Shown in pieces: positions 31,422 through 61,100 of a stretch of 64,000 nt of DNA. Both the position numbers and the translations under genes were made by a program. Origin of the DNA: Vicugna vicugna (lineage: Eukaryota). The stretch spans positions 5,890,302 through 5,954,301 of the forward strand of contig MU058065.1 of the NCBI GenBank assembly GCA_013265495.1, written 5' to 3'. The notes beneath the pieces were generated by a model, which was not told the DNA's origin, did not search any database, and saw only the letters and a program-made list of their open reading frames with translations. How positions within the stretch are numbered: position 1 is the stretch's first letter; each line of letters begins with the position of its first letter.

Positions 31422-31889
31422 ATTAGGGGTTGAATTGTGTCCGCCCAAAAATGTTGAAATCCTAACCCCTAGTACCTATCAGCGTGTTCTTACTTAGAAA
31501 TAGGGTCTTTGCAGATGATCAAGTTAAGATGAGGTCATTATTGTGGGTCCTCATCGAATATGACTGTGTCCTTGTAAAAAGGGGAAATGTGGACACACAG
31601 ACAGACATGCACAGAGGGAAGAAGATATGAAGACAGGGAGGATGCTGTGTGAAAATATAGGATCCGAGTGATGCATTTACAAGCCAAGGAGAGTCAAAGA
31701 TTGCCAGCAAACCACGTGAAGCCAGCAGGAGGTGGGAAGGATTCCCCTACAGGTTTCAGAGGGAGCACAGCCCTGCCAACACCTGGATTCCAGGCTTCTA
31801 GCCTCCAGAACTGTAAGAGAACAAATTTCTGTGGTGTCAAGCCACCTGGTTTGTGGTACTTTGTTATAGCAGCCCAAGGAAACAGTACA
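31422..31889 (+). mobile_element. MaLR solo LTR (MLT1-type)
   Basis: GGGTTGAATTGTGTCC...TAGGGTCTTTGCAGATG...GCCTCCAGAACTGTAAGAGAACAAATTTCTGT...TTTGTTATAGCAGCC. Confidence 0.85.
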
Positions 31890-34649: not shown

Positions 34650-35115
34650 CAGAGGGCGCTGTGGGTAACCTAACTGCGTCTCTCACTCTTCCCACTTCAG
34701 TGAACTTGACCCCACTTCCAACTGCCAATATCTGTACTTCTTTGCCTGCAGGCTTTCTTTTGCTGCTTGACTACAGTTTTCCACTCACATGGCAGTTGGA
34801 AATGCTAGGGAACTCATGCTCTCTACCCCAGAGCAGCTCTAACCAGTGACTGGTGAGACTTTGGGTATGAATCCCCCAGCTCCCGCATGTCTTGGGTGAG
34901 ATAACTCCCCAAGGTGTGTAGTTTACACTAGCTCCCAGAGTCTCTCCAGCAGGATTAAGCCCAGAATTAAGCCTGATAACACACCCCTTTATTGGCCACC
35001 CTCCCTTCCTTGTCTCACTGCCCCGCATCCCTACCAGTGTTCTCCTTCACCTCCCAAATAAACTCCTTGCCCTCAGATTCTTGTCTGGGGTCTGCTTCTG
35101 GGGAAACCTAAAGTA
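34650..35115 (+). mobile_element. ERVL-type solo LTR (LTR16-like)
   Basis: ATAACACACCCTTTATTGGC...CACCTCCCAAATAAACTCCTTGCCCTCAGATTCTTGTCTGGGGTCTGCTTCTGGGGAAACC. Confidence 0.65.
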
Positions 35116-35239
35116 AGTTAGAATTCCTTTGAAATTGAGAATAAGTTAAGAATGCCTGCTATTCTGTTTCTATTGAACACTGTACTGTAGGTCCTGAATT
35201 GGAGTGGGCAACTCCGAGTGTATGGTGAATAGAAGACAT

Positions 35240-38200: not shown

Positions 38201-38750
38201 TGTAAACAAGGAGCTGCCAGTCTCCTCCAGGCTCAGGGGACGAACCAGCCCTGTGTCTAACAGAAAATCTGTGGTAGGAGATGGGACTAGAGACAGGGGC
38301 CAGGGGAGGGCCTGCAGTCTGACAGTTTCTGAGCCACTAGTCTCAGGGCCTATTCAGATCAAGACTGCTATTGAGATTCCTTCTGAATTTGGTTGAGGTG
38401 GGGTGGGTGAGGGAGTAGCAACACCTACCTCATTGCATTCACTGAAAATTGCTAGTTTCTTCCCATTTTAGGGTGTTCTTGAGCTGTTCCCTACTCTGAG
38501 TCACAACCTTGCAGCTGATTAAGGCCTCAGGGGAAGCCTCCCATCCTCCACACCTTCCCTGGTGCTTTCCAGAAGGGCAATTTCAGGCTGATCCAAATAT
38601 GGGTTATTAAAGCCAATTTCCAAGAAAACTCTTTCTACAGACTTGTCTAGAAGTAGGATGGGCGGGGCTTGGACCTGACCAGCGTCTCAGAGGTGAGAAA
38701 AGTGGGATCCGAACACAGGGGAGCTTGGGGTATGGAGGACAGAGAGCACA
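35240..38750 (+). pseudogene. Decayed RESP18-like copy A (PTPRN exon 4 / DNPEP exon 12-15 chimera), 5'-truncated
   Basis: Exon 3-like 35811-35928 (acceptor deleted); 40-nt exon 4-like 36169-36208 (GKLQEKLPLFFPR); 90-nt exon 5-like 36306-36395 (SPVTKVNREQCLNSEVVSEALNQEVTNPSK, GT donor lost); DNPEP exon 14 remnant ~38001-38075; terminal exon 38472-38522 (GVLELFPTLSHNLAAD*); ATTAAA 38606-38611. No exon 1 or 2 homologue found upstream. Confidence 0.88.
37627..37757 (-). mobile_element. Young L1 3' end inserted in pseudogene copy A
   Basis: Same 3'UTR family as the 3071 element; 10-bp TSD CTCAAGGTTT at 37617-37626 and 37758-37767. Confidence 0.8.
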
Positions 38751-39260
38751 GCCCCTGGTTGCCCTGCAGGCCTGGCTTCAGATCCCTTCCTCCTCCCACA
38801 GCCCATTTCTAAGGCAGGTTAGAGGCAAGGTGGAACTGCAGCCAGAGCAGCAGCCATCCCTACTCACAGCCTTCAGATGCGTCTCCTTGGTCTTCCTTCC
38901 ATTTGTGGAAGGAAAATGTTCTCTCCAGAGCCCAAGTCTGAAAGGCCTGGTATGTTGCTCTGCCTTTTGAGGTTCACGGTATCCTCTGAGCATTGGGGTC
39001 CCCTACAGAGCAGTCATGCCAGTCCTGGCCCCAAGAAACCACACAGAGAATAATGCAGCTAAAGGCTATGCACATTTAACAGGCTGATATCTGTGGCCGG
39101 TTTGCCACATTTCCTGGGAGGCAGGAAATTAGTCACCATTGCTCAACACAGCCGAACTCCAGCTGTCGCGTGTTCCAGGATTTACATTTCTCAAAGCACC
39201 TTCACACTCAGTTCATTTGATCCTTGCAAATAGGAGCACATGGAAAAGTATCAAGACCAC

Positions 39261-39621
39261 TGTCTTAATCTGTTTGGGCTGCTATAACAAAATACCATAA
39301 ACCTGGTGGCTTGTAAACAACGGAAATTTATTTCTCATAATTCTAGAGGCTGGGAAGACCAAGATTAAAGCCCTGGCAGATTAGGTGTCTGGTGAGGGCC
39401 TGCTTCTTGGCTCATAGATGGCACCATCTTGCTGTAACTTCACATGGTGGAAGGGTGAGAGCTCTCTCTAGGGCGCCTTTTATAAAGGCACTAATTTCAT
39501 TCATGGGGGCTTCATCCTCATGACCTAATCACTCCCAAAGTCCCCACCTCCAAATACTATCACCTTGGGGGTTAGGATTTCAACATATAAATTTGGGGGG
39601 ATATAAACATTCAGACCATAG
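39261..39621 (-). mobile_element. MaLR solo LTR (MLT1A/MST-type)
   Basis: TGTCTTAATCTGTTTGGGCTGCTATAACAAAATACC...TTAGGATTTCAACATATAAATTTGGGGG...AACATTCAGACCATAGCA. Confidence 0.85.
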
Positions 39622-40282
39622 CATCCACCCACTTATAGAGCCCAGAGAAATTAAGAGACACTCCTCTGGTAATACAGACTTCATCATGCTGCCAGTACAT
39701 GTCCCCTTCCCCATAACCTTGCATCTAAGGACATAGCTAAATATAATACTCATCATATTTACTATCTCTAGTTCTTATTAGTGAGGTTGACCCCTACCAC
39801 CCATCTTACTTTTTCCCATCATGTGTTTACTTTGCCTGGCCACTGGGATACATGGTTCCTGCCTCAAGGCAATTGAAGACTAGCGAGGGAAGTAAATCAT
39901 AGATATAACACATTTATGCAATAGATACTTATTGAACACATGTGTAATTGACCCCATAGGATCCCTGCTTTGTGTCTCCTACCCAGTCTCTGAGCTCATA
40001 AGCAGCTGGACAGTGTCTGCATGTGCTGACACCTTCCCACCTCAAGCCATGGGATTTCTCATCCAGTGGATTCTCTGGAATGCCTGGAAACTTGCCTACT
40101 TATGCTCAAGACAGTCTTGAATTATCTGGGATTTAACACCCTCAGAGGCAGCCCTCAAACAGGTAAGGTCTTAGTTTAGTAGTAAATGTCCCAACATATC
40201 CTGTTCTTGTTGGAGTCAATCTGAGACAATTTCTACAGACGCTCAGGTGTCTCCAGCAGGGTATACTCCCAGTTTCTTACTG

Positions 40283-41841: not shown

Positions 41842-42028
41842 AAACAACAAGTTTATACTGTATAGCACAGGGAACCATATTCAATATCTTGTAGTAACTT
41901 ATGGTGAAAAAGAATATTAAAGTGAATATATGTATGTTCCTATATGACTGAAGTATTGTGCTGTACACCAGATATTGACACAACATTGTAAACTGACTAT
42001 ACTTCAATAAAAAAATATTAAAAAAAAG
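41842..42028 (+). mobile_element. Artiodactyl-type L1 3' end
   Basis: ACTGTATAGCACAGGGAACCATATTCAATATCTTGTAGTAAC...ACAACATTGTAAACTGACTATACTTCAATAAAAAA. Confidence 0.82.
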
Positions 42029-42039
42029 TAATCCCAGAA

Positions 42040-42920
42040 CTGACCACATAGAGTCTTGCAGGTAATAGTAAAGAGTCTAGATCTTACACAAAGGACAGAA
42101 GAAGATCATTAGGGCTTTTAAGGAAATGAGTAGAATAATGATGCAAAAATTTTAAAGACCAGCTTAGTACTGTTGGAGAATGTATTGACAGAGGGCAAGA
42201 GTGGAACAGATAGATCTGTTAGGAAGTATTATTTTGGTCCAGGGAATACTGCAGTAGTTTGAACTGGGCAACCACACAGAGCCAAGAACCTCCAGCTGGC
42301 CATGGACTTTACCCAGAGGAGCCTGAGCCTCAAGGGGAATGCTCTCCAAGGAAACAGCTTCTGACTTCTGTCACCATGGCAACTGTGCTTCATTTGCCCA
42401 GAATGGTTGCTGGGGTGACACATCAGCACTGAGTGACTGATCACCACAATAAGAACTGGTTACCATGGTATAAAGTCTGCAAACAAAAAGCTGCCATTCT
42501 TCTCCAGGTTAGAGTTCTTGACTAGCTATAAATCTAAGAGAAAATCAGGAGCTGGAGAGAAGATCAGGGCCAGAGAGCCAAGGGGAGGCCAGCTGTGGGG
42601 CAGTTGCTGAGTCATTTTGCCTCAGAACTTGCCCAAATCAAGACAGCTATTAGAGGGGAAAGGGGAGTTTACATTGTAGAGAGGGAGTACTCCAGCACAT
42701 ATACACACAAATTACAAATTCCACATTTCCTTCCATTTTAGGGCTTCTTTGAACTGTTTCCTTCTCCAAGCAAAACTTTGTAGCTGACTGAAGCATCGCT
42801 ATCCTCCACCCACTGCACTGCCATTTAGAGGGGCAGGTCTAAGACAACTTGCTTCAGAATTTTTAATGTGGGTTTTGGTCAAAATCCTTCTTGTGGGCTT
42901 GTCTGATGGCAGGAAATGTG
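42040..42920 (+). pseudogene. Decayed copy B: 3' fragment of the RESP18/DNPEP-derived unit
   Basis: DNPEP exon 14 remnant ~42281-42350 (AACCTCCAGCTGGCCATGGAC), intron 14-like sequence, and terminal exon 42742-42791 (GGCTTCTTTGAACTGTTTCCTTCT... = GFFELFPS) with a 1-nt deletion and degenerate poly(A) signal; flanked by L1 sequence on both sides. Confidence 0.85.
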
Positions 42921-43930
42921 GGCCCTAATAATTAAAACACAAAAAAGTAATGCTTAGAGGGAAAATATAGATTTACTTGCGTTTATTGTAAAGAAAAAAA
43001 AATTGAGTCAATGATCTAAGCTACTAACTCAAGAAGCTAGAAAAAGATAAGCAAAACTCAAAGAAAATAGAAGGAGATAATAGTAAAGAATGGACATCAA
43101 AAAAATGGGTAAACAATAGAGAAAAACCAATAAAACCAAAAGTCAGTTCTTTAAAAAGATCAATAGCATTTGTAAATCGCTAGCTACACTGATGAAGAAA
43201 AAGAGAGGAAAAATATGAAGTATCAAAATCATGAATTTAAAAAGTGAAATCACTTCAAATTTCTACAGCCATTAAAATGATAAATATTATGAATATCTTT
43301 ATGCTAACAAATGTGATAACTTAAATGTTAGAGACAAATTTCTTGAAAAATTCAAGTTTCCAAAACAGACATGAAAAGAAATAGAACAACTGAATAGCTA
43401 AAGAGATTGAAATTGTAATAAAACTTTCTCACAAAGAAACTCCAGGCCCAAAGAGGTGAGACGTATAGCTCAGTGGTAGAGCCCATGCTTGGCATGCATG
43501 AGGTCTTGGATTCAATCCCCAGTGCCTCCATTAATGGGGGGAAAAAAGAATCTCCAGGCCCATACACTCAAACAAGTAATATCAATCATACAGAAACTCT
43601 TTCAGAACATAACAAAAGAGGAATGCTTTCTGACTGATTTTATGAGGTCAGGATAATCAAACATTTGGAAGAAAGCATAGGAGAAAAATCTTTGTGAATT
43701 TGGGATAGGCAAACATTTCTAAGAACACAGAAAGCATTAGTGATAAAAAATAAAGTCAATAAATTGGACTTCCTCAAAATTAAAATACTTTGCTCTTCAA
43801 AAACACTATTAAGAAAATTAAAATTAAGTGCTCAGAATTGGGGAAAATATCCATAAAGCATTAACCTGTTAAAGAAGTTGTAACCAGAAGTACTAGAGAA
43901 TTATGTCAATTATGGAATAGTAAATATTTT
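42920..43930 (+). mobile_element. Old L1 ORF2 fragments
   Basis: A-rich sense L1 ORF2 motifs (AAAGTCAGTTCTTTAAAAAGATCAATA, AAATTGGACTTCCTCAAAATTAAAA). Confidence 0.78.
43453..43544 (+). mobile_element. Camelid tRNA-derived SINE inserted into L1
   Basis: tRNA-like head; 18-bp TSD AAAGAA(A/T)CTCCAGGCCCA at 43433-43450 and 43545-43562. Confidence 0.88.
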
Positions 43931-44412: not shown

Positions 44413-45316
44413 AGATATCATAATGCTATTGTGATTATGCAGAAAATTCATTCATTCTAAAAGATGTATATTGAATTTTTTAGGTGTGAAATGTCATGAT
44501 GTCTGTAAATTACTTTCAAATACTTCAGCAAGAAAAAGAAGCAATTGTGACAAAATCTTATTAATTGTTAAATCTGAGTGGTAAATATATTAATGTTCAT
44601 TTGAGTCTTCTCTCTTTTTATATTTGAAAATGTTCATAATAAAATTTTAAGCTTAATAAAAAAAAGATTGAAATGTCAGTCTAGAGTTTAGGAAGCCTGT
44701 AACTAAATTAAGTGGAAGCAAGGGATCAGTTAGTTAGCTAGTTATTACAATAGCTCTATTAAAAAGAGTACAGTGGTTTGATCCCAGGCTATGGCAGTGG
44801 ATGTGGAGAAGTAGATGGATGTGCTTATTCTTAGCAGGTCAAACCCATGATTGCTGAAGGGTTTTAGATGGGTGAGGGCAAAGTTAGCATCAAGATAATA
44901 AAAATAGACTAGATTCATTGAGTGCCGGCTACCCAGTTGCTGTTCATTTTTAATCTTCACAGCAAACCTATGAGTTAGGTACAAATCGCACCTGCGTTTC
45001 ACATGCAGTCCATTTCTCCAACCTTGGGACTGGGAGTAGAGGCAGCAGTCCTTGGCATACGATTTATGTAAAAAAGGAGTGGGTTCCTGGGGATGGGGTG
45101 TGGTGGGATGGTTGTGGGGGCGGTAGGGGAAGTAGGGGCTGGATAGGAGTCCGCAGGGGCAGGGCCCGCCAGTGATTGGTCCAGCTGCCAAGGGAGGGTT
45201 GTGCAGATCCCGTTTCGCTAGCGGGTGGGAAGCCACAGCCCCGCTCAGTCCCTCAGGCAGCTGTCCCTACCTTCTCTGCGACTTAGGTGGGGAGCCAGCG
45301 CGCCAAGCCCAGGAGG

Positions 45317-48300
45317 ATGCAGCGCCTGCTGTGGTCTGGGGGCTCCCGGGGGCTCTGGCTGCTCCTCTGTTTCCTGCTTCTGAACAGCCGCCCAGGGGGC
45401 TGCAACGACATTGGTGGCCACGGTCAGGAGGAAACCTGGGGGGTGCGGGCAAGGCTAGAGAGCGATTCTGAGCGAAGCACGCTGGGATGGGGGAGCTCAA
45501 GGTTTGGAACTTAAGAGGAAAGTAATGTGTTTAGGGGTGAAAATAGATGAATGTAGAGAGCATCTCGCCCAAAGAGGCGCAGGCTTGGAGTGGGGCTCGG
45601 CATAGGGGCTTTGCGACTCAGAGGACTCAGGGAAGCCCACTCAGGGGAAGACTGGGGATTTGGGAGGAGGACGGGGAAACATGCATTGGGGGAAGTAAAA
45701 CTGGCCTGTGAGGCCGCAAGAAAAGCAAGACGAGCCAAGGGGCCAGGGAAAAGATGCCTATGGCTGAGGGGTAGGCAGGGGACTAGAATCTCTAGACTGC
45801 AGGAGCAGGGACCGCGGGTTATCGGAGTCCTGGCTCCGAAGAGAAGGCTGGGCCGAGGGATGAGCCAAGGCTTCTTTATAAGCCCCCCAGAGCCTGGTGT
45901 CAGCGATCCAATTTCTGCTAAGAAGTGGAAGGCTAGGCCGGGGTAGAAGAGGATGGAGAGAGAAACAGTCCATCCTTTTTCCATCCCCTTCACTCTGAGC
46001 CAGCCAGGTAGACCATCGCTGACTCATGTCTGAGCTGCCAGAGACCGACTGCGCAGACTCAGGGATTCCAGCGCCTGGCGCGTGGGGCAGACGGCGCAAA
46101 CTCAGAGACTAACGCCAACTTTCCTCCCCCTATCTGTGGGGTTTAGATGCCAATGCAGAGGACTCCCGAAGAACTGTGGGAGGAGGCCTGATGTCAAGCG
46201 ACAGGAAGCAAGGCGTGGGGAGCGGGTGGGGGTTGGTTGTAAGGACGATCAAGCCTTGCGGGAATGCCCAGCTCTCTTCACCGCTCAAAGTCGCCCCCAT
46301 GTCAGGCTTCGGCCATCACTCAGCACCGCGGACAGCGCCAGGAGCCCTGTGGGTCTGACCCAGGGTGTCCAGGTCACTGCTTTTCCTATCCGTTCTGGGA
46401 GTGCTGCCTCAGAGAACAATCTCTCCTTCCAGAAGCTCTTTTCCTTCTCAACAGGGTGCTGGAGGTTCTGGTCCTTCCTAAAGCCAGGAAATTAATACTA
46501 GGATCCATTTGACTGGGGAGAATTCCCAGTCCATAATGACTTGTGGTAATTCCACTATAGGGAAAACAAACAAACAAACAGACTCCAGTCCTACCCATCT
46601 ACCTGGAATAAGGAAAGTGTGTATAGCGTTAGGGATTATCTCCATCTCCTTTCCTTCCCTTATGCAGAGTCTGCCAAACTGTGGCTTTCAGGACAAGGAT
46701 CCAGACACTCAAACCCTATACATACCATACTTTTTTTCCTTTAAGGATTCCAGACCTCCTCTGTAATCCCCTCCAGGCTTCAAAGACTTCCCTGAATGCA
46801 ATTTGCCTGTTTTCCATGCCCTGCCTTTTCACCTGATTATCCATTTCATGTGTGTAGCTTTCTGAGTCTCTGCTTATCTTAACCTCCACAGGATGCTCTT
46901 TGCCTGTAAGCTTGGTTCTTACTGGAAGTTGGTGCCAAAGATGAATGAGATTCAGGGGCTGAAGAACAGGGAAAGTGGTGATGGGGAGGGAAATATGAAA
47001 AGAAGGAGGACTTGAAATTAGGAGGGAGTCTGATGAGGGGGACAGAGACCAGTGAACCCAGGGATGTTAGTGGGAGGAAGCTGCTTTCCTTCAACTGGGA
47101 TTTGTAAGTCTTCTGGCCAGGCTCCTTTCTCACACCACTATTTTGCTCTTAGATGGTCAGAGCCAAGTGGGAGTGGGGCAGCTCTGGTCCCTCCAAGGAT
47201 TTACTACCCCAGTCTTCCAGCGCTTGCAAGTTTTCTTCCAGCAGATTGTGCCTCAAGGTGAGTAAAAGGTGAAGAGAGTCTGGGACCTGGTCAGATACAA
47301 GGGTAGGTAATAATGAGGGGCTTTTTATCTGAGAACAGGTTTTCTTCCCCAGATATCTCTTCTTGAAACTTTTCTGTCATGCTTACCTCCTGGAGGACCA
47401 GGTGGGACCAGAGTAAGTGTGGAGCTGGAAGGACAGGCTGTTTGCACTTGAACATCCTGGAAGAACCCAGTAGAGGCTTCTAGAAGAAGCCCTTGGAAGA
47501 TGTCAGCATCCAACTCCTTGAGACTAGCCCCAACCCCAACCACAGGCACTATCTGAGATTTTACAGAGACAGGAATCCTTAAATTCTCAGCCAGAACACA
47601 CACACACACATATACACACACACTTCAGCTTCTGAGTAGGAAGCAGAGCAGATTATAGGACAAATAGAAGGGAGGAATGAAGGGAGTGAGGAGCCTCTTG
47701 AAGACAGATGGCCAACCCTTCCTTATAGCAGAGTTGCATGAATGAGAGAAGAGTCAGATAGGAAATGCAGCTTGAGTTCATTGTACTACTACCACTACGA
47801 ATGTCTATCATGTTTATAATGCCTTAGAGCAGCGGTTCTCAAAGTGCATCTCTGGACCAGTAGCAGCATCACCAGGAGACTTGTTAGAAATGCTAATTCT
47901 TGAGCGTCATCTCAGACCTCTTGAATCAGAAACTCTAGGAGTGAGGAACAACAATCTGTGTTTTAACAAGCTTTTTGGGAGATTCTGATGCACCCTAAAG
48001 TTTGGAAATCACTGTCTTAGTTTTCTCAGCAATTTTTATATCCCTAATCTCATTTAATCCTCACAATAGCATCAAATGAATCAGCAAAAAGAGTATAGTC
48101 TTAATCCTAACTGAACATTTATTACATGCCAGGAACTGTGCTATGCAACTTTTATATGTCATCTCATTTAATTCTCTCCACAAATTGTGATCTTTTATCT
48201 ACCTGAGGGAGAGGGGGAGTGTTGATCTCACTCTGGTCCCTGGAGTGGGCCAGTTAGAACATCCCTGGTGTTAATTCACCACATCTTTTCACCCTGCAGG

Positions 48301-50550
48301 TTTGTTCTGGAAGGATGACATGACCCAGAATGTGATGACCCAGAAGATGGGACACATTAGCAAACTCCATCCCCAGGATCCATGTGTGAGGGTTGGACAG
48401 GCAGCCTTTCCCACCAGAACCACTGGGATGAGGTATGTGAGGCCTATGGTCAGTCCATGCTGTCTGACTGACAGACAGAGCAAGGAGGGAGCAGGCATTA
48501 ATGCAGGTAAGAGCTGCCAGGAGCACTATGAGAATGATTCAGAGGTCCTGTCTGTGATCTGCAGGAAACAGTTCCATGAGCCATTAGTAATGTCTGCAAA
48601 GGGAGAGGAGGCGGGTGCTAACAAGCCTAGGTCCCATTTATCATCCTCATGTCTTTTAGGGGCAAGCAAGAGGAGAAACTTCGACTCTTATTCCCCAAGG
48701 TGAGACCCATGTGTCTTCTCAAGACATGAATCCTGACTTTGGGTCCCATCTCTTTCCCTCAGGGGCTCTGCCACCTTTTTCTGTCTCCTTCTTGATTCCT
48801 GTCTTCCTTCTTCACAGAGCCCAATGGCCAAGGTGAACAAGGATCAGTGCTTTACCTCCAGAGTGGTTTCAAAGGCCTTGAAACAAGAGGTGGCCAACCC
48901 TGTCAAGGTGAGGGCTCACTTTTTCTTGGGAGGCTAGAATCACCAAAGACTTCTTTAAATGAGGGAGGCAGGTGTGAAGGAGGGAATGGGCATTGGGATG
49001 TGAACAAAAAAGCTGAAGAAAATATCTTTCCCAATTGAATGGTACCCAGATTTTCCTGTCTCTCAGACCACCTTTGGGTGTCCAAATAAGAGGTTGAGGG
49101 GCATGATGTAGGTGCTGAGAGCCTCTAAGGGTGAAATGATCTATAGTATCATGAAAAACAATTGAGTTTAAAATAGGCATGCAAAATTGAAGGGTTTCAC
49201 AATTAAGTAAAAGGTCCCTCTTTTCTCCATGCACTCCTCTGTATATAGCAAGTGATAGTGAAGTTACTTTGGATGAATGGAAGAGGTAGCCCAGAGGCCT
49301 TTGCATTCAGCACCTCCCTGCCTTGCTCTACTCTGTGGCCTGAGTGAGCATCCCAAGGTTCTGCATTATCTCTTTGGGATGCTTGAACACTTCAGAATTC
49401 GACTGAAAACACTCATATAGCCCTCCCATCTATCTTTATAGATAAGACATTGGGGCCCAGGCTGGTCAAGCAGCTTACTCAAGGCTTCATAGCAGGTTCG
49501 TGGCAGAGCAAAGACTGGACCCAGGTGTCCTGATTCTCAGCCCTTTCCCCTGAAAAGCCTCTGCCCTTCCTCTCAGGGACTGCAGCAGGGGTTGGGCTGT
49601 CCCACATACCAGACTCTTCAACATGGACAAGTCTTTTTTTGGACTAAGGCCTAAATTACAAGAAGGTGCCAGCCAGAGGACAATATAAAGGAAGGGCATC
49701 CAAGGCAGAGAGCACCATACTGACAAATGCCCTGAGACAAAGATCCATAGTATGTCTGAGGGACAGATGGAAAAGTCAGTGGTAGAGAATTAGGTTAGAG
49801 AATGTAGGACTGGGGTTGACCACACAAGGACTCATAGATCATGGTGGAAGGTTTGGATTTTATTCCAAGTATGGTGGCAAGTCGATGGGGAAATTTTAAG
49901 GAAAGGGATATCATAATGTGATATGATTTGAAAAGACCACTCTAGTGATATTGGGGGATGGATTGTGAGAAAACTAAGAGTGAAAACTAAGAGGCCTATA
50001 AGGAGCTGATCATCCTGGTACAAGGGAGACTGAGGTGGCTTGGACTGGAATGGTGGCAGTGGAGTCAGCACCTCCAGCTGGCCGTGCACTCCATCCAGAG
50101 GCATCCTGCATCTCTGGGGCTTCCAGCCCCTTATGCTCTCCTAGGAAACCTGTTCTCACTCCCATAAGATGGCAGCTGGGCTTCCTAAGCCTGGATCGGC
50201 TGCTGGGTCGGAGCACACAGAGCTAAGTGAAGACCACCTTTGGGAGACTTGTTGGTGTGGTGCTTTCAAGAAAACAAACAAGATACTGCCATGCTTCTCC
50301 AGCCTGAGCCCAAGGGAAAATCACAGGATGAGAACCCTATGAATTCCATGTGGGAGCAAGGGGACAAGCACTCAATCGATGGACTGAGTTACTGTGGGCT
50401 TACTTAAATCAGGCTGTTACTGAAGCATTTTGGAACGACTAGGTGAGGGAGGGGCCACCTTCCCACATACTGATTCCAATCCTTTGTTTCTTGTTTTAGG
50501 GCTTCTTTGAGTCACCCTCCACTGTAGGCCACAACCTTGTCGCTGACTGA
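45317..50550 (+). CDS. RESP18: Regulated endocrine-specific protein 18, complete, 6 coding exons, 174 aa with N-terminal signal peptide
   Basis: Exons 45317-45422, 47153-47257, 48300-48432, 48660-48699, 48818-48907, 50500-50550 (525 nt, all GT-AG, frame preserved). Protein: [174 protein letters not shown]. It resembles rodent RESP18 as I recall it and sits at the expected position between DNPEP and PTPRN. Confidence 0.93.
46319..46339 (+). promoter_or_regulatory. RE1/NRSE (REST-binding) element in RESP18 intron 1
   Basis: CTCAGCACCGCGGACAGCGCC is a near-perfect canonical RE1, at the position homologous to the PTPRN element. Confidence 0.85.
46892..46940 (+). pseudogene. Dead exon: remnant of PTPRN exon 2 within RESP18 intron 1
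   Basis: CCTCCACAG|GATGCTCTTTGCCTGTAAGCTTGGTTCTTACTGGAAGTTGGTGCCAAAG|AT aligns to PTPRN CCTCCACAG|GCTGTCTGTTTGACCGCAGACTCTGCTCTCACCTGGAAGTCTGTATTCAGG|GT, with two 1-nt gaps and donor GT>AT. Confidence 0.8.
47830..48014. mobile_element. MER5A-like hAT-Charlie element in RESP18 intron 2
   Basis: Terminal inverted repeats CAGCGGTTCTCAAA / TTTGGAAATCACTG; internal TTGTTAGAAATGC...GAATCAGAAACTCT...TGTGTTTTAACAAGC. Confidence 0.8.
50064..50145 (+). pseudogene. Dead exon: 3' half of DNPEP exon 14 within RESP18 intron 5
   Basis: CCTCCAGCTGGCCGTGCACTCCATCCAG matches DNPEP CCTCAACTGGCCATGCACTCCATCCGG (PQLAMHSIR); 5' half missing and donor GT replaced (CTAG|GAA); the downstream ATGGCAGCTGGGCTTC matches DNPEP intron 14. 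Confidence 0.85.
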
Positions 50551-50627
50551 GACCTCGTGCAAGCCTCTCTGCCCCAGTGCCCTCCCCATTGCCCTCCAGG
50601 GAGGTAGTTCCAGGATGAATCTCCAAC

Positions 50628-50633
50628 ATTAAA
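50628..50633 (+). terminator. RESP18 polyadenylation signal (ATTAAA)
   Basis: ATTAAAGTG 78 nt after the stop, homologous to the DNPEP ATTAAAGTG at 30418. Confidence 0.7.
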
Positions 50634-51349
50634 GTGGCTTTCATGCAAACTCTCTGTGACTTGCCCTGAGGCAGGATGGGTGGGGTTTGGACCTGGCTAG
50701 AGTCCTCTAAGTGAGAGAGGCAGGACCTGAACAGGGGGTGGGGTGAGAAGAACACAGCGCCTTGGTATTGCTCAAAGGCTGCTTTCTGTCCTGTTTTCCT
50801 TCCTGAAGTAGGGAAAGTGAGGGTGGGACCATAGCTAGAAAGGCTAGCCTTCTCTGCCCACATCTGATGATGCTCTATGATCCAGTTGCCCACCCATCCT
50901 TCCATGTCAGACTTGCTTGGATGGTGCTGTTCTATGAGGGTCTCCACCTCCAGCATTACAGCCCCTGCCAAGGCTCTCCCATTCTTTGTGCTTCCAAGAA
51001 TCAACATAAAAGTGCTGTAATCAAAGTGTACGCACATTAAATGTTTTGCTGACTCTTGCTAGTTTGCTCCTGGTAGCTTAAAATTTTTAAAAGGAGTGAG
51101 TAATCTGATCACTCGTGATCAGCCAAATACCAGAATGTCCTATCCTCAGAGCTTTATACTTCCCAAGACACTCTCATACTCATTGGACATTCACAGGTAC
51201 ATGAAAATGGGCAAATATCTAGATTTTGTTTCTCTAAGAAATTGGGACTTGGCCACACACCACATCCATTTAAACAACCCAGAGAAATTAAGTGACTAGT
51301 TCTTGATGGCACAGATTCTTTGTCATGCTGCTGTTCTTGCCCTCTCTAC

Positions 51350-52080
51350 TTATCAACTATGTCAAAATGCATAAGGCAAAAACTGATAGAACTGACAGGA
51401 GAAATAGAAAAATTCACCTTTATAATTAGAGACTTCAGCACTCCTCTGTCAGTAATTGACAGATCAAGCAGACAGAAGATCAGAAAGGATATAGATGACC
51501 TCAACAGAACAATCATTCAATCTGATCTAATTGATGGTTAGAATATACCATCCAACAACAGCAGAATGCAAATTCTTCTCAAGCTCACATGGAACATTCA
51601 TCAAGATAGACCATCATAAAACACACCCCAACAAATTTAAAAGAAGAGAAATCACACAGAATACATTCTTAGACCATAATGAAGTTAAACTAGAAATCAA
51701 TAACAGAAAGATAGCTGGAAAAATCCCCAAATATATGGAAAACAACACCTTTTTAAATAACCCATGGGCCAAAGAAGAAATTGCAAGAGAAATTTTAAAA
51801 TATTTTGAAGTAAACAAAAATGAAAATACAATTTGTGGCATGCAGTGAAAGCAGTGCTTTGAAGAAAATTTATAGCAATGAATGCATACATTAGAAAGTA
51901 AGAATGACCTAAAATCAATACACTAAGTTCACACTTTAGGAAACTAGAGAAAGAAGAGCAATTTAAGCTTAAAGGCAGCAGAAGAAAATAAACAATAAAA
52001 ATTAGAGCAGAAATCAGTAAAATTGAAAATAGGAAAAGATAGAAATTAATAAAACTCAAAATTCGTTCTTTGAAAAGAAA
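51350..52080 (+). mobile_element. Old L1 ORF2 endonuclease-domain fragment
   Basis: ORF-track peptides IIRDFSTPLSVIDRSSRQKIRKDIDDLNRTI and YHPTTAECKFFSSSHGTFIKIDH are L1 endonuclease sequence, broken by frameshifts and stops. Confidence 0.9.
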
Positions 52081-55000
52081 AAGAATTATTAGAAATTCTA
52101 AAACTTAAAAATGTGAGAACCAAAAATTTAGTTGAATAGGTTTAATAGCAGATTAGAGACAGCTGAAATAGAATTGGTGTACCAGAAGACACGTCAGAAG
52201 AAATTTAGCCTTTCCCTCCAAAAAACACAAAGAGGCAAAGGATGGAAAATAAAGGGAAAAGGGTAAGAAACCAAGAGGATATAGTGAGTAGAGTCACCAT
52301 TTATTTAATTGGCATCCTAGAAAGAAGAGAGAGAATAGGGCATAAGCAGTATTTAAAGAGATTGTAGCCAGAAAATTTCCAAAACTGTTGAAAGATATCA
52401 ATGAACAGATTCAAGATTACCAAGTCTCAAGCAAAATACTAAAAGACAAAAAACTAAAACTAAAACTAACAGAAAACTGACATTTCAGGAAAACAAAGCC
52501 AAAGAGAAAAATCTTATAAGCAGCTGTGAATGTGTGGAGAAGATTATTTTCAAGGGAGCAACATTTAGCCTCATAATTAACTCCACAACAGCAACAAAAG
52601 AAGCCAGAAGATAGAGAAATAACATTTTAAATGTGTTGAAAGAAAGTAACTGTCATTCTAGAATTCTATAACTGACAATTACCCTTCAAAATGAAAGAGT
52701 TCCACATCTGCCTGGGATGTAGGAAGCCCAAAAGATAAACACTCCCATTCTAACAACAAGAAAATAGCTGGTTCAACTACAGAATCACAACTTTTCTTGA
52801 GTGCATCAGAGAGCTGAGGTCACAGAGAGCTGATTTCTTTCAGGGCAGATGTAGATAGAAACTTTCAGGTTCCTTATAAGAAATTTGAGCTGGAAATTTA
52901 AGCCCTGAGCTAATAATTTTTTTGTCAAGTCTCCAGAACATGTAGAAGCAACCAACCCACAACACAACACTCCTTATTTCCCTAAAATATTCTACAGCAA
53001 TAAACTTTTGGTCATCTAAAGTCTTGTCTTCTGTAGGCACTTGATTATAAGTATCTACAGGCAATAATGTGAGGAATTATCTTGCCACTGCATGTCATGG
53101 ACTGCCAATATCCCCTCTACCACTGGAAACAGTCATTAATGCTTTTATATCTAATAGAGCAGAAAACCAATAACAGAAAACCATCAGAGAACACATCCTT
53201 AAGATTCTGTTTCTTTGGAATCACTATCAGTACCAAATTCTTATCAGTCAGGGTTCAATCAGAGAAGCAGATTCACTAGGGATTGTAGCAGCTGTGTTTA
53301 AAGTAACTTTTTTCCCCCTCTCATTTCTTTTCCCTGCTACTTTATATCAGGAGCACTGATATTGACAATGCTTTAGATTTCATATGAGAGTATGTCTGAA
53401 TTAAGGGATGTGTGCATCACTTGTCATAAGGGTACAAAGTTTTCATTCAAACAAAACACAAGGATGGAAGCTAGAATTAAGGTAGATGGTCACCATTTTC
53501 CCACCCATATTTATGCTGCATCATTCTTCATCCTGCTCTATGTCTCCAAGTTGATGTCTTTGGATTGCATAAACCAGAGGACTTTGCTCACTGACTTCCG
53601 GTTAAGTTTAGACAATAGTAGGTATTTGCAAGAGTTTAGAGGCCAAAAAAGGAGAGAGGCCAAGATGAGTATTCCTCTGGCTCCCTCCCTAACAGCTGTG
53701 ACTTCACAAAGGTCTATATTCCTTTACCTGTCCACACCTTTATAAATAGTTACTTTGTTAAACTCTTCTTATTTACTCGGATTGGCCATCTGTTTCAGGC
53801 CAAGTTCAAGACAATAGACTGTACACAGATCAACAAAAAGTAAACTGGAATATAGGTCAAAAGATAAGGTAGAATCATAGAAGGTACCACAAGAAAGTTT
53901 AACACAAATTTACTTGGAATCCCAGAAAGAAAGGAGCAAGTAAATGGGACAGAGTCAATATTTAAAGAGATAATGTCTGAGAATGTTTCAAAACTGATGA
54001 AAGGCATGAGCCCATGTAGTCAAGAAGCCCTTTGAATATCAAAGAGAATAAATAAAAAGAAATTCTCCCCTAGTCACAGCCTAGTGAAACTGTGGATAAA
54101 GGCAAGTTATCTACAAAGGAATAACAATTATACTGACAGATAATCTCTCAAAAAATAAAAAATAAAAAGGAGGGAGAAGGGGATCAGATGAGCAATAACT
54201 TAAGTTTGCCCCTATATTCTACTCTCCACCAATTTTTACCCAGTTTTCTGTCCCAAGAGGCTGACCTGTGTGGACTACTTCAATGAGTTCCCTGTTCCTC
54301 TGGATTCTGGTTTGGTTTAGGACAAAGGTAATACTTAGAAGCAGATCAGAGGGAGGGAATGAAGAGAATGAAGAGAGACTACCTATTTCCACAGCTTCTT
54401 CCCTGTGAGAAGGTACAGGCTGTCTGCCTCCCCTGGCACATATGTGCAACAGGAAACATGTACAAGAGTATATATGTATATATTTATATACGTGTGTGTG
54501 TGTATATATACGTATACATATACATATATATATGTGTGTATATATATATACAATCACACCATTCATGATAACCCAAGACTGGAGATAATCTAAAATCAAT
54601 GTTTATTAGTTTTTCTTTACAGTTTTATAACCTATGCATGCATCCTTAGGTTATAAAATCATAAAGAAAAGCAAGGAAACATTGTCAAGTAGAGAATGGA
54701 TAATGGTTACCTTTGGGAAGAGGTTATGACTAGGGGACAAAATAATGCTTCCAGGATGTTAGAAATGTTCAATTTCTGGACCTGGGTTACATGGGTGTTC
54801 ATTTGGTGATAATTTATTGAGCTATTCATTTTTGTTTTATGCATTTTCTGCTTTTCATATTACACAATTTACAAAGTTTTAAAAAAGGAAATAAATAGGG
54901 TGAAGTGATAAAGATGGCAGGGAGAATTGTGGAAGGTGCAGAGACGACTTTCCTGAGTACGCCTTATTATATAGGTTTGACTTTTGAACAACATTTTACA

Positions 55001-57000
55001 TATTCAAGAAATAGAAGTATATAAAAATAAAAAGCAAATTATAATATTAAAAATTAACAAACCAAATTATATATTGAATTGGTAAAAATGACTACACAAA
55101 CAAAAGAATTATTTCAAATGACATTAGACACAGTATTTTGATGGTGTACCCTTAGGGGTACATGGTGTATATATGGTATAACCCTTAGGGGTTATAAGGA
55201 CAAAATAAACTATGCAAAGTCTTAAACGTATTCACATTTATTTTATTAGTAGAATAGTATTTAGTAGAATAATATTTGAATTATTATTTGTAAATTATTG
55301 TGTGCATATTGTAGGATTAAACATGTAAGTGGTGTTAATGTTATTAGAAACCAAATTTTTCAGTGTAGTAAAGAGATACAAGTATAAAATTAAGAGTTCA
55401 GTAAAAGTTACAGCTAAATTTTAACTGGAAATATCAGCATGAGAGTGTGTGTATCTTACTGTCCTAGCTCTGTGCACTGAAAGGACCTGGAGGCACCATC
55501 AATCACCTCAATAGCCATTATCACCCCTGAAACCCTTATTACGGTCTCTAAAAGCAGTTCTTACTAAAAGCTACCAAGTCTCTTTGGAGGAATGGCTGCT
55601 TCTATGACTAAGGCAAGGAATAAAAAAGATTAACCTGGTACGTACTGAAATGATAGAAAGCAAGGGAGCTTTTGGTAATTAATAGAGTATTTCAAAAAGA
55701 AACAAGAGCCAGTTTAAAGGAGCTTTCACTTACTTCAGGGTAATCTGAACATCAAAAGAATAATTACTGTGATTGCCCAATACACATTGAATATATAATA
55801 ATCCATACTTTCATAGTAATGCTCAGAAAGTCATAAATAATTTTTTAAAAAAACTTATTTGCCATTCTTGGAGGTAACTATTACACTGACTCATTAATCT
55901 GTAACTTAATAGTTAAAGAGAAGAAATGAAGAATGTATGCTACCTTTCCAGTTGGAATTGTATTTCAAAGTAACTAAGCCCAGTTGGTGAGAGAGTGCTC
56001 TTCTTTATGAAATAATATCAGCTAACAAATGTTAAAGGAATGATAGAATTAGAAAAATCACCATTTTAGTCAAGGATCATCAATGAATGGCATACTGATA
56101 TGTGAAAAGTTATTGGGGAACTAGATATTCTCAGAATGCTAAAATATCTTCCATGGATTACATACTTATGGTCACAAGAGGAAAACATCACTTTATGATA
56201 GACCCCTGGCTGTCTCTGTCTTAAACCAGTGATCAATTTCAGCATCACTAAATAGTGGGACAGCCAGACATTATGCACTTCCTGAAACCATGCAATTGGA
56301 GACATACGGTATCACCTGTAAAATTTTTGCTTTAAATTTTTTTTACCTGATCCAATCAAGACTTTAAATATAACTTCCTTTTTTTTTCAGGAAATACAGG
56401 GGATATACAGGATATATACAATGGAAATACAGGCTATATACAGGGGAAATACAGGGAAACATATCACAAGCAAATAGTCAGACAAATTCAGAAGGTGGAG
56501 AGTTGTAAACAAAAACTGGCCTGGTCTCTTCTGCAAGAAGATGTCAAAAATGGAGGTGGGAGTTTAGGAGGGGAGGAGCACTCTTTAGGCTAATTTAAAG
56601 AGAATTAAGAAACATAACTAAATGCAATGGTGATCTTTGATTGACTCCTATTTTGAAAAAAACAGCTGAAAAGGGGGCACTTTGGGAAACAATTTGAGAT
56701 CTCTGAATAGGAACTGAGCATTAAACGATATTCAGGAATTACTATAAATTTTGTTAGGTGTCAATGGCATTTTGGTTATGTGGGAAATATCCTTGTCTCT
56801 TGGAGATGCATATTGAAATATTTAGAAGGAAAATATAATGTCTATTATTTACTTTTAAATACTAAAAAGATGCAAATATGGCAAAACAATAACTGTTAAG
56901 TCTAAATGATGAGTGTATGAGGATTTACTAGGCACTACTATTTTCTTTTTCTTTTCCTTTTTTTTTTTTTGGATTTTGGAAATTTTTTACTGAAAAGCAA
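52080..57000 (+). mobile_element. Cluster of old L1M fragments (ORF1 and 3'UTR) with interspersed LTR pieces
   Basis: ORF1-like motifs at 52080-52700 and 53800-54150; L1MC/ME-type 3'UTR motifs at 54600-57000; boundaries approximate. Confidence 0.6.
54467..54551. repeat. Compound (TA)n/(TG)n microsatellite
   Basis: Direct reading. Confidence 0.85.
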
Positions 57001-57659
57001 GAGTAAAGTGATAAGTTTTGAACTTTAGAAATTCCATTCCCGAGTTTATTGGGTGACAAAAATGGAAGCAAAAGGCTAGTTGGTTGATTACTGCAATAGT
57101 CATCATGTAAGAGTACAGTGGTTTGCATAGGATAGCGAGTATGGAGAGAAGTGGACTGATGGGAGATAATATTTTGTAGGTAGAAACCATGAGGTTGTTG
57201 ATAGACTCGAGGTGGAAGAAGGCGAAGGAAAGGAGAGTCGAGGCTAATCACATAGGCGAGTATGTATCAATTGTTTAGTATATACCAATGCAATGGTTGT
57301 TCTAAGTGAGCTTCATGAGTTTAACTCCCGTAATCTTCACAACCACCTTGTGAGGTAGGTAGTATTGGCACCTTCATTTTACACATCAGGAAATTTGGGC
57401 TCAGAGAGGTTAAGCAACTTGCCCAAAGTTATACACTTGGAAGGTGGCATTGCTGGAACTGTAATCCAAACACACAAACACGTAACCATTGCTGCTCTTT
57501 ACAGGACATCGATTGCATTGAGATGCGAAATAGTACATATTCTATTCATTTTTAAGCTCTTCTCTTAAAATTTTTACTATCCGGCTCATTTCTTTCCTGG
57601 CCCCCACCCAACTGTCATCCTTTTCGCCAACCGTGCGCCTGAGTGATGGAGGTAGTAGT

Positions 57660-58100
57660 CCTTGGGGAGCAGCATACGTCAAGATAAGGTCAAGTGGGAA
57701 TTCTAGTGAGGCGCCTACTGTTTGGTGTAGGAGGCTGGGGTGGGTAGGACCGCGGCTAAGACAGTGCTCTTACGCCACGTATGACGCAAATTAGCGCAAG
57801 TGCTGGGGGTGGAGGTGTCGTCACCACATACCCGGGGTTGGCGGAGCTGCTGCGAGAGGGGCGTGTAGACCCCGCCTCGGTGGGTGGGGAGTGGCAGGCC
57901 CCGCCTCGGCCCCTTTGGCAGGCTCCGGCCGGCGTCGCTGCGGCTCTGGCAGCGGAGCGAGAGCCCGGAGCCTGGAAAGATGCGGCGCCCGCGGCGGCCT
58001 GGAGGTCCCGGGGGATCTGGGGGTCTCCGGGTGCTCCTCTGCCTGCTGCTGCTGGGCAGCCGCCCGGGAGGCTGCAACGCCATTAGTGCCCACGGTCAGA
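57660..58100 (+). promoter_or_regulatory. PTPRN CpG-island promoter with CRE-like sites
   Basis: CpG-rich region before the ATG; CRE-like motifs TACGTCA (57675-57681), TGACGCAA (57782-57789) and CGTCA (57819-57823); CCCGCC GC boxes near 57870 and 57900. Confidence 0.75.
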
Positions 58101-61100
58101 AGGGAACGGGGGTTGGGGGGAGGGGAGGGGAGGATGGTGCCGGGAGCAAAACTCAGTGGGGGATGTGGAGGGCAAGTGCCAGGAAGGTAGGAATCTTAGG
58201 TAGAATGTATGTGTGGAGTGGGGTAGGGGAGGCACTGAGAGATGAGGAAGACGAGAGGGCCTCTTAGAGGAAAGGGGCGTAGGCCTGGAGGTGGGGCTGG
58301 GAACACGGGGGCGGGACCTAAGAGAAGCGGGCTCAGGGGAAGATTGCGGTTATGGGAGAAGGAATGGGGGTGCATATGGACAGAGGGACCTATAGAGACA
58401 GGATACAATACCACGGGAGAAGCCAGTCGCTCCAAGGCGCCAAAAAGTGGCGATTGGCGCTGAAGGATGGAGGGGTGGAGGGAGGGAGAGGGAACCCTGA
58501 TCTCTGGGCAGTAGAAGTCGGGGCCGTGAGCTTTGGGGTCCCAGCTTTCAGTAGAAGATCAGGCCGAGGGAGGATCCAGGGTTTCTCTTCAAGCCTAGAG
58601 AGGCCAATAGCTATAATCTGATCTCCGGATAAGAGGGGTACAGCTGGGGGAGGGGCAGAAGAGAGTGAAGAGGGAAGGGTCGTCTCCCGTCCCCCTCCCC
58701 ACAGCCAGGCCTGGTGCTGACTCACATCTTAGAGGACAGAGACAGTCAGCGCTGACTCACGGGCAGGGGGAGGGTGGGAGCGGGGGGCGTGTGGGGGAAG
58801 GGGCGCAGCCTCGCCGTCTGGCGCTCTCCTTCCCCACCCGGCTTGGAGGCCAATACAAGGTACTTCCTGTGGCGCTGCGAGTTGGTAAGGTGGAAGATGA
58901 AGACTGGAATGGCGCAGAGGTCGGGTCCCTTGGCGACTCCTCACCCTGTCACCCTTCCCTCCCCCCATAACTGCTTCCAGGCAAGCCTTCAGCGGCACCA
59001 AGCTCAGAGCTTCAGCACCGCGAACAGCGCCAGCGGCATTGGGGCCACGGACCGCAGGGACAGTGTGGGGAGCATTGCCTTACCCCACCCTTACCCCTTT
59101 CCCCTAAAAGGGGAAGTGTGCTAAGGTTTCCATCTCTTCCGAGTCCCGGGCCATCATAAGATGCTTTTGGTGATTTGGGAAGGAAAGTCCCTTTTTTCTC
59201 AGAACTTGGCAAAAAGCTCTCCCACAGTAATTCTATGAGAGTAGAATATATGATTCTCTACTTTCACTACCCCCATGCACCTGGAGGGCTTCTTCTCCTC
59301 GTTACTTAGTTAAGCAACTGAAGATTTTAGGGGAAGAATCCAGACTTGCAAATCTTTAAAATCCAAAGCCAGGTCCTGTGCTTTCTTCTCTTAAGAATTC
59401 TAGGCCTCTTCTCACCTCTCCTCCCAGCTTAAAGTCTTCCTTAGAATGAAAGAATGAATCCCCTCTGCTTCCCCCTTTCCTAGCCTGTCCATCCATCTGA
59501 CCATTCTGTGTGTGCGTGTGTGTGTGTCTGAGCCTATGCTCACCTGTCCTCCACAGGCTGTCTGTTTGACCGCAGACTCTGCTCTCACCTGGAAGTCTGT
59601 ATTCAGGGTAAGGCCCAGACACAGGATATACAAGATGGGGGTGTGTGTGGTAGGGTACACAGTAAGAAAGAAGTGGGGAGTGGGAGGCCTGGAAGGGAGA
59701 AGGGGAATTGGGTTTGAGGAGAAAAGGGACTGGCCTGGAGGAGCAGAGCTCTCTGAAGCCAAGAGAAGAGTTAGACGTAGTGCTGTCTATTTGCAACATG
59801 GGCTTTGGAAGGCCTCTTGGAAGCCCCTTGTGACATGACTTTTTTGCTCTTAGATGGCTTGTTTGGACAGTGCCAGGTGGGAGTGGGGCAAGCCCGGCCC
59901 CTTCTGCAAGTCACTTCCCCAGTTCTTCAACGCTTACAAGGTGTGCTCCGACAGCTCATGTCCCAAGGTGAGGTCTAGGTGCACTGGAGGAGAGAGACTG
60001 AAACTTCATTAGATAAGGGTGGGGAAGTGAGGGGCCACCTGACTCAAAGGTTTCTCTCATGGAGCATTCCTATTACAGCCACTCTAGCGCCTCACCTTCC
60101 CAGGCCTTGCTGGAGGAGACAGGAGTGGGGGTGGAACCCTAGAGATAGGCTTTTCACATGTAGACTCTCTGGAGGAATCCAAAGGAGGTTTTTAGAAGAA
60201 GCCACTGGAACAGACCAGCATCCATCTCTTTAGGACCAGCCTAATCTCTAGAACTGACTGAGTGCTCCAGAAACATGAGTTCTGGAGTCCTCAGCCAGAA
60301 CAGCCCACTCATCTAATTCACTCATTCAACCAGTATTTATTGGGTACTTCTGTGTGGCCAACATAGTTTTAGGTGCTTGGGATGTAGCAAGGAGTAAAAC
60401 AGACAAAGATCTCTGCCTCCTGGGGTTTACATTCAGGGGTGAAGGGAGGGAATACATTATATAAATTAGAAAATATATAGTGTATTAAAAGGTAATAAGT
60501 ATCATGGGAAAAAAACAAATACTATAGTAAGATAAAGGAATCATAAATAGTGAGGTAGGAAGCTGCAGGATTAAATTGAGTGGTCAAGATGGAACTTACT
60601 GAGACTATGAAATTTAAATAAAGACATCAAGGAGGTGAGGGTGTTTTCCAGAAGGTTATCTAGTGGAAGAGTGTTTAAGGTGGCCAGAGAGCTAGAACAT
60701 GCTCCCTAAGGTAGGAGAATGACTTTGAGGAACACCATGGAGAACACCTTTACAGTGTGGCTGTAGAGGAGTGATGGAGAAGCAGAGTAGAAGATGCAGT
60801 CAGGTAGGTGAAGAAGAAGGATTTTCCTCTAGGATTTTATAAGAGAATGTGTGGACATTGGCATTACTCTGAGTAAAAGAGGAAGCCATCACAAGATTTG
60901 AGCATAGGGGTGCATGATCTCACTTCTACTTTAAAAGGATCACTCTTGCTGCTGTGTTAAGAACAGAGTGTAGGGAGTCAAGGGTAGAAACAGAACACTA
61001 AACATTAAAAGCTACCACAATAACTCATATAAGTGAAGAATAGGTGTGGATGAGGGTGGTTGCAGGGAGGTAATGAGAAATGACAGGATTCTGCCTATAT

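Follow-up and report, generated by a model that had tools for sequence, protein, structure and literature searches.

The 64,000-nt stretch of Vicugna vicugna DNA analysed here (assembly GCA_013265495.1, contig MU058065.1, positions 5,890,302 to 5,954,301 of the forward strand; hereafter the window) contains the neuroendocrine secretory-granule gene RESP18, located between DNPEP and PTPRN, both of which are intact. Every gene is on the plus strand, in the order DNPEP, RESP18, PTPRN. DNPEP extends to ~30600, with its last exon at 30301-30351, and PTPRN, of which the window contains the 5’ part, begins at 56763. The coding region of RESP18 spans 45317-50550, and its upstream homology begins at 44422. 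RESP18 proper is referred to as copy B where it is compared with copy A, a partial RESP18-like copy on the plus strand at ~35246-39707; a further piece, fragment C (~41849-43170), resembles the 3’ end of DNPEP. Comparison of these sequences supports a chimeric composition of RESP18, in which the 5’ part stems from PTPRN and the 3’ part from DNPEP, with a single junction inside intron 3.

The exon model of RESP18 was obtained by tblastn with the NCBI camelid RESP18 protein P0001, the nearest protein in the database (98% over exon 3), combined with splice sites read from the sequence. Exons 2-6 of P0001 are encoded in the window at 97-100% identity, and exons 3 and 4 at 98-100%. The coding sequence totals 525 bases, corresponding to 174 codons and a stop. 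Exon 1 (45317-45422), which contains the start codon and the signal peptide, is homologous to PTPRN exon 1 (~58007-58117), and exon 2 (47153-47257) to PTPRN exon 3 (~59862-59969). Exon 3 (48300-48432), located by tblastn with P0001 and by a blastn match to 62752-62964, is homologous to PTPRN exon 4. Exon 4 (48660-48699) agrees with its DNPEP homologue, exon 12, in both length (40 nt) and reading frame. Exon 5 (48818-48907, located by tblastn) is homologous to DNPEP exon 13 (26678-26779), and exon 6 (50500-50550), the last exon with the stop codon, to the last exon of DNPEP. In terms of the parental genes, RESP18 is composed of PTPRN exons 1, 3 and 4 and DNPEP exons 12, 13 and 15, all on the plus strand.

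The chimeric intron 3 (48433-48659, 227 nt) has its donor GTATGT at 48433 and its acceptor AG at 48658-48659. An earlier reading of the window from the letters alone (the sequence-only reading) had proposed a fusion breakpoint within 48433-48659, and in the P0001 map this range is exactly RESP18 intron 3. Exons and introns of DNPEP are numbered here as in that reading; DNPEP intron 11 (26124-26513, plus strand) was read directly. PTPRN exon 2 (CLFDRRLCSHLEVCIQ, 59559-59606) has no counterpart in the RESP18 mRNA. With this exon present in PTPRN, the intron that starts at 62945 counts as PTPRN intron 4, of which the first ~110 nt (62945-63054, plus strand) are relevant here. PTPRN exon 4 corresponds to residues 94-126, according to PMC10201709.

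In a self-comparison of the window, RESP18 is colinear with PTPRN on one side of the intron 3 junction and with DNPEP on the other. Positions 44422-48416 align with PTPRN 56763-62964 in four blocks of 61-65% identity, with expectation values (E) down to 1.5e-64. On the 3’ side, 48513-48910 align with DNPEP 26354-26770 (67%, E 3.4e-45) and 50063-50802 with DNPEP 29856-30597 (E 1.6e-15). These colinear nucleotide blocks uphold the fusion of PTPRN and DNPEP that had been proposed for RESP18. The matches to both parents take in introns and flanks, including the promoter region on the PTPRN side (the upstream flank 44422-44883 matches PTPRN upstream sequence 56763-57227), which excludes an origin by retroposition. 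When intron sequence only was compared, RESP18 intron 4 matched DNPEP with a z-score of 8.7, and the score between the end of RESP18 intron 2 and PTPRN intron 3 was reached by 5 of 1000 shuffles. The region directly 3’ of DNPEP (30600-35246) had no match to the region 3’ of RESP18; matches to the downstream sequence of RESP18 (51263-51345 and 51848-52087) are located after copy A and fragment C. An alignment of RESP18 to the two parents is fitted by a model with one switch.

The contribution of DNPEP is also found at the protein level. A profile of 25 RESP18 orthologues, compared with all solved structures, matched only aspartyl aminopeptidase with E <0.001, the best of the DNPEP chains being 4dyo_A (E 6.4e-5), followed by 7u5h_A and 3var_A. 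Profile position 116, the first residue of RESP18 exon 4, is exactly where the match starts, and a second, weak stretch of the profile falls on the C-terminus of DNPEP.

Within intron 3, the part from 48514 to 48659 (plus strand), which includes the acceptor region of the former DNPEP exon 12, is derived from DNPEP intron 11. Over intron sequence only, copy B 48514-48657 and DNPEP 26355-26500 are identical at 100 of 147 positions (68%), and none of 1000 dinucleotide shuffles reached this score (z 23.6); the DNPEP intron 11 likeness that had been noticed from ~48511 onwards is thereby borne out. The equivalent part of copy A matches DNPEP at 97 of 159 positions (61%; 0/1000 shuffles, z 13.2). 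Likeness to PTPRN was not found 3’ of the switch, where control comparisons were equalled by 255/500, 274/500 and 974/1000 shuffles. A 27-base core in this part of the intron (48581-48607; DNPEP 26424-26450) is almost identical in copy A, copy B and DNPEP.

Solid PTPRN homology ends at 48416 in copy B (PTPRN 62964) and at 35929 in copy A, in which 35801-35929 matches PTPRN 62853-62981. Between this end and the switch lies a zone (48417-48512, plus strand) with weak likeness to PTPRN intron 4. Direct reading confirmed that all strings and coordinates quoted in the sequence-only reading are present. In copy B, they are GTCTGACTGACAGACAGAG from 48462, GAGCAGGC at 48489-48496 and GGTAAGAG at 48506-48513, and in PTPRN GTCTGATGGACAGAGGGAC from 62989, AAGCAGGC at 63018-63025 and GGTAAAAGAGG at 63034-63044. 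A joint profile of copies A and B gave a score of 18.6 against PTPRN 62966-63053, which was reached by none of 300 shuffles (mean 11.5, standard deviation 1.6), and the PTPRN tile ranked 10th among 1238 real tiles of the window. Significant likeness to DNPEP was not found 5’ of the switch (691/2000 shuffles; 54/300 for the A+B profile against the upstream DNPEP intron). Because A and B are two long-separated witnesses of one ancestral junction that combine to this result, we accept, at roughly the 1% level, that the 5’ part of intron 3 is PTPRN-like. The claimed likeness to PTPRN intron 4 before ~48510 is thus real in the joint profile, but it is weak, and tests with single copies are marginal.

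The position of the junction was estimated by single-switch alignment with PTPRN as the left-hand and DNPEP as the right-hand partner, using copy B, copy A and the A+B profile under four gap schemes (12 runs). In all 8 runs that used copy B, alone or in the profile, the optimum lies after 48496-48512; the 4 runs limited to copy A place it at 35998-36004. The optimum is placed after 48512 in 7 of the 12 runs. The best-supported switch, expressed as a 3-bit interval, is ~48495-48514 (extending to 48480 in one scheme; plus strand), and the widest 6.6-bit interval in the runs using B is 48478-48524. Copy A contains the same switch at 35997-36019 (plus strand), with 36006-36385 matching DNPEP 26342-26757; its position 36017 is the equivalent of 48512 in copy B, in agreement with the ~36015 proposed before. 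On the side of the parents, the DNPEP match starts at 26335-26355 across the switch alignments, which places the breakpoint in DNPEP intron 11 at ~26335-26355. The breakpoint in PTPRN intron 4 is near 63040-63044, with a coordinate that floats between 63013 and 63054 depending on the gap costs.

As a length check, a hybrid intron broken at PTPRN 63044 and DNPEP 26355 should measure 100 + 159 = 259 bases; in copy B, the distance observed from the PTPRN donor homologue to the acceptor is ~259-263 bases. From these alignments, the junction most likely lies within 48495-48514. AGAG at 48510-48513 falls inside the 3-bit interval. The sequence-only reading, which considered the breakpoint mapped at ~48510, was right as to the interval but overstated the precision, especially on the PTPRN side. 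A search of the source assembly found only copies A and B, and a metagenome scan with the RESP18 alignment, aimed at DNA of other species, matched 594 patterns, of which none was confirmed.

Both parents carry AGAGG directly at the best-scoring switch (DNPEP 26350-26354, PTPRN 63040-63044), followed within 2-4 bases by CTGGA (DNPEP 26359-26363, PTPRN 63047-63051), exactly as pointed out before. Copy B has AGAG at 48510-48513 (plus strand), a remnant of the parental AGAGG directly 5’ of the DNPEP-like CTGCC, and copy A has GGAG and then CTG at 36015-36021. Microhomology-mediated tandem duplications, formed by alternative end joining or by fork stalling and template switching/microhomology-mediated break-induced replication (FoSTeS/MMBIR), have been described for human copy-number variants. 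The 4-5 bases common to both parents at the best RESP18 switch are reminiscent of such duplications, and the probability of a shared run of at least 5 bases at one fixed junction pair in the two introns is 0.007. Even so, we consider an origin of the junction by microhomology-mediated repair or template switching at the AGAGG of the two parental introns rather unlikely. Once the uncertainty in position is realistically allowed for, a shared run of at least 5 bases occurs in 1858 of 3000 random 27x27 boxes; the 36-mers flanking the junction resemble each other no more than random pairs do (1294/5000), and some runs set the switch 9-17 bases 5’ of the motif. In addition, the parents are read ~100 million years after the event, an age taken from the divergence of placental mammals. 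In both copies of the chimera, only 4 of the 5 motif bases remain before CTG, one G short of either parent and of a clean single copy, and a later loss of one base from the product is conceivable. In contrast to the FoSTeS/MMBIR-type cases, the run at RESP18 is statistically indistinguishable from chance given the positional uncertainty. The comparison, made within one genome, neither supports nor excludes AGAGG microhomology.

The fusion could also be real with a breakpoint located further 5’, in 48417-48494. The edge at ~48513 would then mark a conserved or gene-converted block, upstream of which the DNPEP sequence has decayed. Several observations speak for such a view and against the position that we prefer. 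The switch position is set almost entirely by the onset of DNPEP likeness, and the DNPEP-like block is far better conserved than neighbouring paralogous non-coding sequence, with Kimura two-parameter (K2P) distances of 0.34-0.47 among A, B and DNPEP (0.34 for A-B and for B-DNPEP) versus 0.6-1.1 for introns 4 and 5 and for the 3’ end region. The high conservation could be caused by a splicing element, by other constraint or by gene conversion, and the 5’ edge of the block could mark a constrained or gene-converted block instead of a breakpoint. Copy A allows the DNPEP match to start 12-20 bases earlier, at DNPEP 26335-26342. On the PTPRN side, where solid homology already ends at 48416 (35929 in copy A), local alignment of 48417-48512 with the next 200 bases of PTPRN intron 4 gave scores that 107/2000 shuffles equalled in the case of B and 51/2000 in the case of A, with marginal ranks of the PTPRN tile (24/838 and 37/838, respectively). 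When the PTPRN alignment was extended globally from its anchor across 48417-48512, the result did not reach significance (58/500 for B, 246/500 for A), owing to ~26 additional bases that both copies have over PTPRN in this zone. Scores as high against the A+B profile also occur at six or seven unrelated sites of the window. Finally, the splice sites of RESP18 are predictions from conservation and from a protein annotated in a close relative.

The values for single copies carry little weight, because a non-colinear match of copy A to the upstream DNPEP intron is about as strong (77/2000 shuffles). The A+B profile, on the other hand, matches PTPRN intron 4 colinearly up to ~63040-63053 and has no match to the upstream DNPEP intron, and the length sum for a breakpoint at PTPRN 63044/DNPEP 26355 fits the length observed. 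We regard a breakpoint in 48417-48494 as unlikely, and retain the junction at 48495-48514.

Both parental introns are phase 2, as the sequence-only reading had stated: on direct reading, GTAAGT at 26124 is preceded by the exon end CT in DNPEP, and GTATG at 62945 by the exon 4 end AG in PTPRN. RESP18 exons 4-6 are read in the frame of DNPEP. Phase 2 also applies to the donor now used by RESP18 intron 3 (48433), which is distinct from the ancestral PTPRN donor. In the alignment of copy B 48302-48416 with PTPRN 62850-62964, the PTPRN donor (62944/62945) falls within RESP18 exon 3, at ~48397-48401. The last ~32-36 bases of exon 3 (48397-48432, plus strand, with a start uncertain within 48397-48401) are former PTPRN intron 4 sequence that is now coding. 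Copy A has the same layout, and the peptide GQAAFPT.TTG.R encoded by the former intron is conserved across 25 aligned orthologues. A fusion that was in frame from birth, as had been claimed, would be expected from the parental phases and is not readable from the present splice sites, because the donor at 48433 differs from the ancestral one.

A homologue of DNPEP exon 14 persists at ~50063-50140, as a degenerate, skipped stretch 3’ of RESP18 exon 5. Because this exon and PTPRN exon 2, which is skipped as well, each comprise a whole number of codons, the reading frame is kept. The donor shift and both exon skips are common to all placental orthologues aligned.

Copy A is truncated at the 5’ end and lacks exons 1 and 2, and a 21-base deletion takes out the acceptor of exon 3. 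Its four exon-like pieces (35813-35928, 36169-36208, 36306-36395 and 38472-38522, plus strand) comprise 97 codons with no stop and no insertion or deletion. The ratio of nonsynonymous to synonymous substitution (dN/dS) relative to RESP18 is 0.39, and random substitution at equal distance leaves the frame free of stops in 1473 of 20000 trials. As far as can be judged from these values, coding constraint may act on copy A today or may have done so in the past. The “RESP18-like” proteins P0063, P0085 and P0088 were considered as orthologues of copy A and rejected, as they are alternative models of RESP18 itself. Fragment C matches copy A 37785-38528 and DNPEP 29957-30480 over 42076-42797, and then, over 42944-43170, the RESP18 downstream sequence 51848-52087. 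Taken with copy A, this arrangement points to repeated duplication and loss in the interval from DNPEP to RESP18. The synonymous distances are similar (0.73 for A-B, 0.61 for B-DNPEP and 0.64 for A-DNPEP), and copy A is therefore likely to have split off soon after the fusion.

Searches for RESP18 found 89 matching proteins in one case and 138 in another, the best 120 of these 138 being listed. All named matches among those listed are from placental mammals, Afrotheria included; marsupials, monotremes and other vertebrates were not present among the matches listed, which argues only weakly that they lack the gene. Afrotheria, Euarchontoglires and Laurasiatheria all retain the chimeric exon pattern. 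Placental divergence would date the event to ~100 million years ago.

We propose that RESP18 was probably born from one tandem segmental duplication, which would have started in DNPEP intron 11, 5’ of exon 12, and ended ~100 bases into PTPRN intron 4. Tandem duplication of this unit would create one new junction, in which the end of the first copy, carrying the 5’ part of PTPRN, is joined to the start of the second copy, carrying the 3’ part of DNPEP. The junction would have become an intron of a new gene between two intact parents. Since both broken introns are phase 2, the donor of PTPRN exon 4 could have been spliced in frame to the acceptor of DNPEP exon 12; we infer both the single event and the in-frame splicing at birth. 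Later, the ancestral PTPRN donor would have been lost in favour of a new phase-2 donor ~32-36 bases downstream, and the homologues of PTPRN exon 2 and DNPEP exon 14 would have become skipped. A further duplication of the chimera would have given rise to copy A with the same junction. The junction is likely to be a fossil with no function of its own today, legible partly from the strong conservation of the DNPEP-derived side.

A two-step origin, in which a plain duplicate of the PTPRN 5’ part came first and DNPEP 3’ exons were gained later by rearrangement or gene conversion, appears highly improbable. Copy A and fragment C show that the region is unstable, but they lend no specific support to two steps. 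A single tandem duplication accounts for the order and orientation, for there being one junction, and for the non-coding homology that runs colinearly to either side of it. Moreover, the synonymous distances are all 0.6-0.7, with no sign of a younger DNPEP part, and none of the best 120 of the 138 orthologues has an alternative 3’ part as its main form. Chance or compositional resemblance without any fusion, which could be argued only from the weakness of the match in 48417-48512, is practically dismissed by the E values of 1.5e-64 and 3.4e-45 for colinear blocks, the intron-only z-score of 23.6 and the protein-profile match to DNPEP from exon 4 onwards.

Chimeric genes formed by tandem duplication over parts of neighbouring genes have reportedly been surveyed in Drosophila by Rogers, Bedford and Hartl. 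RESP18 resembles such genes in that it is located between intact parents, with the 5’ part taken from the downstream and the 3’ part from the upstream neighbour, and in that it has one intronic junction and a preserved frame. It differs in that the event predates the placental radiation, with a junction still locatable to ~20 bases, and in that its parents, PTPRN and DNPEP, are unrelated genes. RESP18 is apparently an undescribed example of a known mechanism of gene birth. Taken as a whole, the view that we lean towards, with some reserve, is that of a neuroendocrine secretory-granule gene, placental-only in our searches, which arose in one step as a tandem-duplication chimera of PTPRN exons 1-4 and DNPEP exons 12-15, is undescribed in print, and has a ~100-million-year-old junction that can be read to ~20 bases. 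Such a mechanism of birth for a placental-specific endocrine gene is testable, and the origin of RESP18 is not discussed in the literature examined. Rearrangement junctions of this age are seldom legible, and the many mammalian genomes could show which repair pathway was behind the birth of the gene.

The beta/delta-globin fusion genes (PMC4041002), products of unequal crossing-over, are likewise chimeric genes in a tandem cluster of placental mammals. They result from homologous exchange between paralogues, whereas the parental introns of RESP18 have no in-register similarity: on the plus strand, the score of PTPRN intron 4 against DNPEP intron 11 was reached by 41 of 500 shuffles, and the match is out of register. 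Non-homologous joining is more likely at RESP18 for this reason, and a shared repeat as substrate for homologous exchange was rejected on the same ground. PTPRN 63016-63119 and DNPEP 26391-26499 show a marginal inverted similarity on opposite strands (9/500 shuffles in one of two tests), which we treat as chance after two tests. Four colinear inverted matches with 58-64% identity connect DNPEP intron 13 (27989-29182) with 55450-56735, just 5’ of PTPRN, on the opposite strand; they probably represent an old shared repeat.

The homology of the N-terminal part of RESP18 to the luminal domain of PTPRN is established (PMC10201709 and PMC6457024). In line with the RESP18 homology domain of PTPRN/ICA512 and PTPRN2/phogrin, the window shows PTPRN homology for RESP18 exons 1-3. 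The literature examined treats RESP18 simply as a homologue of this domain, whereas the C-terminal 59 residues, according to our comparisons, come from a metallopeptidase gene, DNPEP, and not from the luminal domain of PTPRN. No description of a DNPEP contribution or a chimeric origin of RESP18 was found in the literature searched, which is partly accessible text with subscription papers outside its coverage.

Four RESP18 proteins match only PF14948 (RESP18) in Pfam, P0001 with 188 bits (cut-off 25) over residues 37-139. The match extends from exon 2 to the middle of exon 5 (47153-48850) and crosses the chimeric seam at residue 115/116; the last ~24 PF14948 positions on RESP18 are DNPEP-derived. 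This overrun of 24 residues past the seam matters when PF14948 is used to define the RESP18 homology domain of ICA512. Pfam PF02127 (Peptidase M18) had no match at E up to 10 to the four RESP18 proteins or to RESP18 exon 5 alone; DNPEP exon 13 alone matches PF02127 with E 7.1e-7 at profile positions 340-373 of 432. RESP18 retains homologues of only three short DNPEP exons, and the metal ligands of M18 enzymes are presumably located upstream of the breakpoint or in the skipped homologue of exon 14. Judged by these matches, the tail of RESP18 is a homologous fragment of DNPEP and not a member of the M18 enzyme family. The UniRef cluster of giant panda RESP18 (P0018) is named “Aspartyl aminopeptidase”, an automatic annotation that appears to have picked up the DNPEP-derived tail; in the sources examined, this name was the sole pointer to a DNPEP contribution.

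Intron 3 of RESP18 is part of an open reading frame (48275-48700) that is continuous with exon 3. Camel, a macaque, a titi monkey, a pig-like source and dingo have recorded protein models that read into the intron, with only in-frame changes among these models. A protein model from beluga uses an acceptor within intron 3, near 48563.

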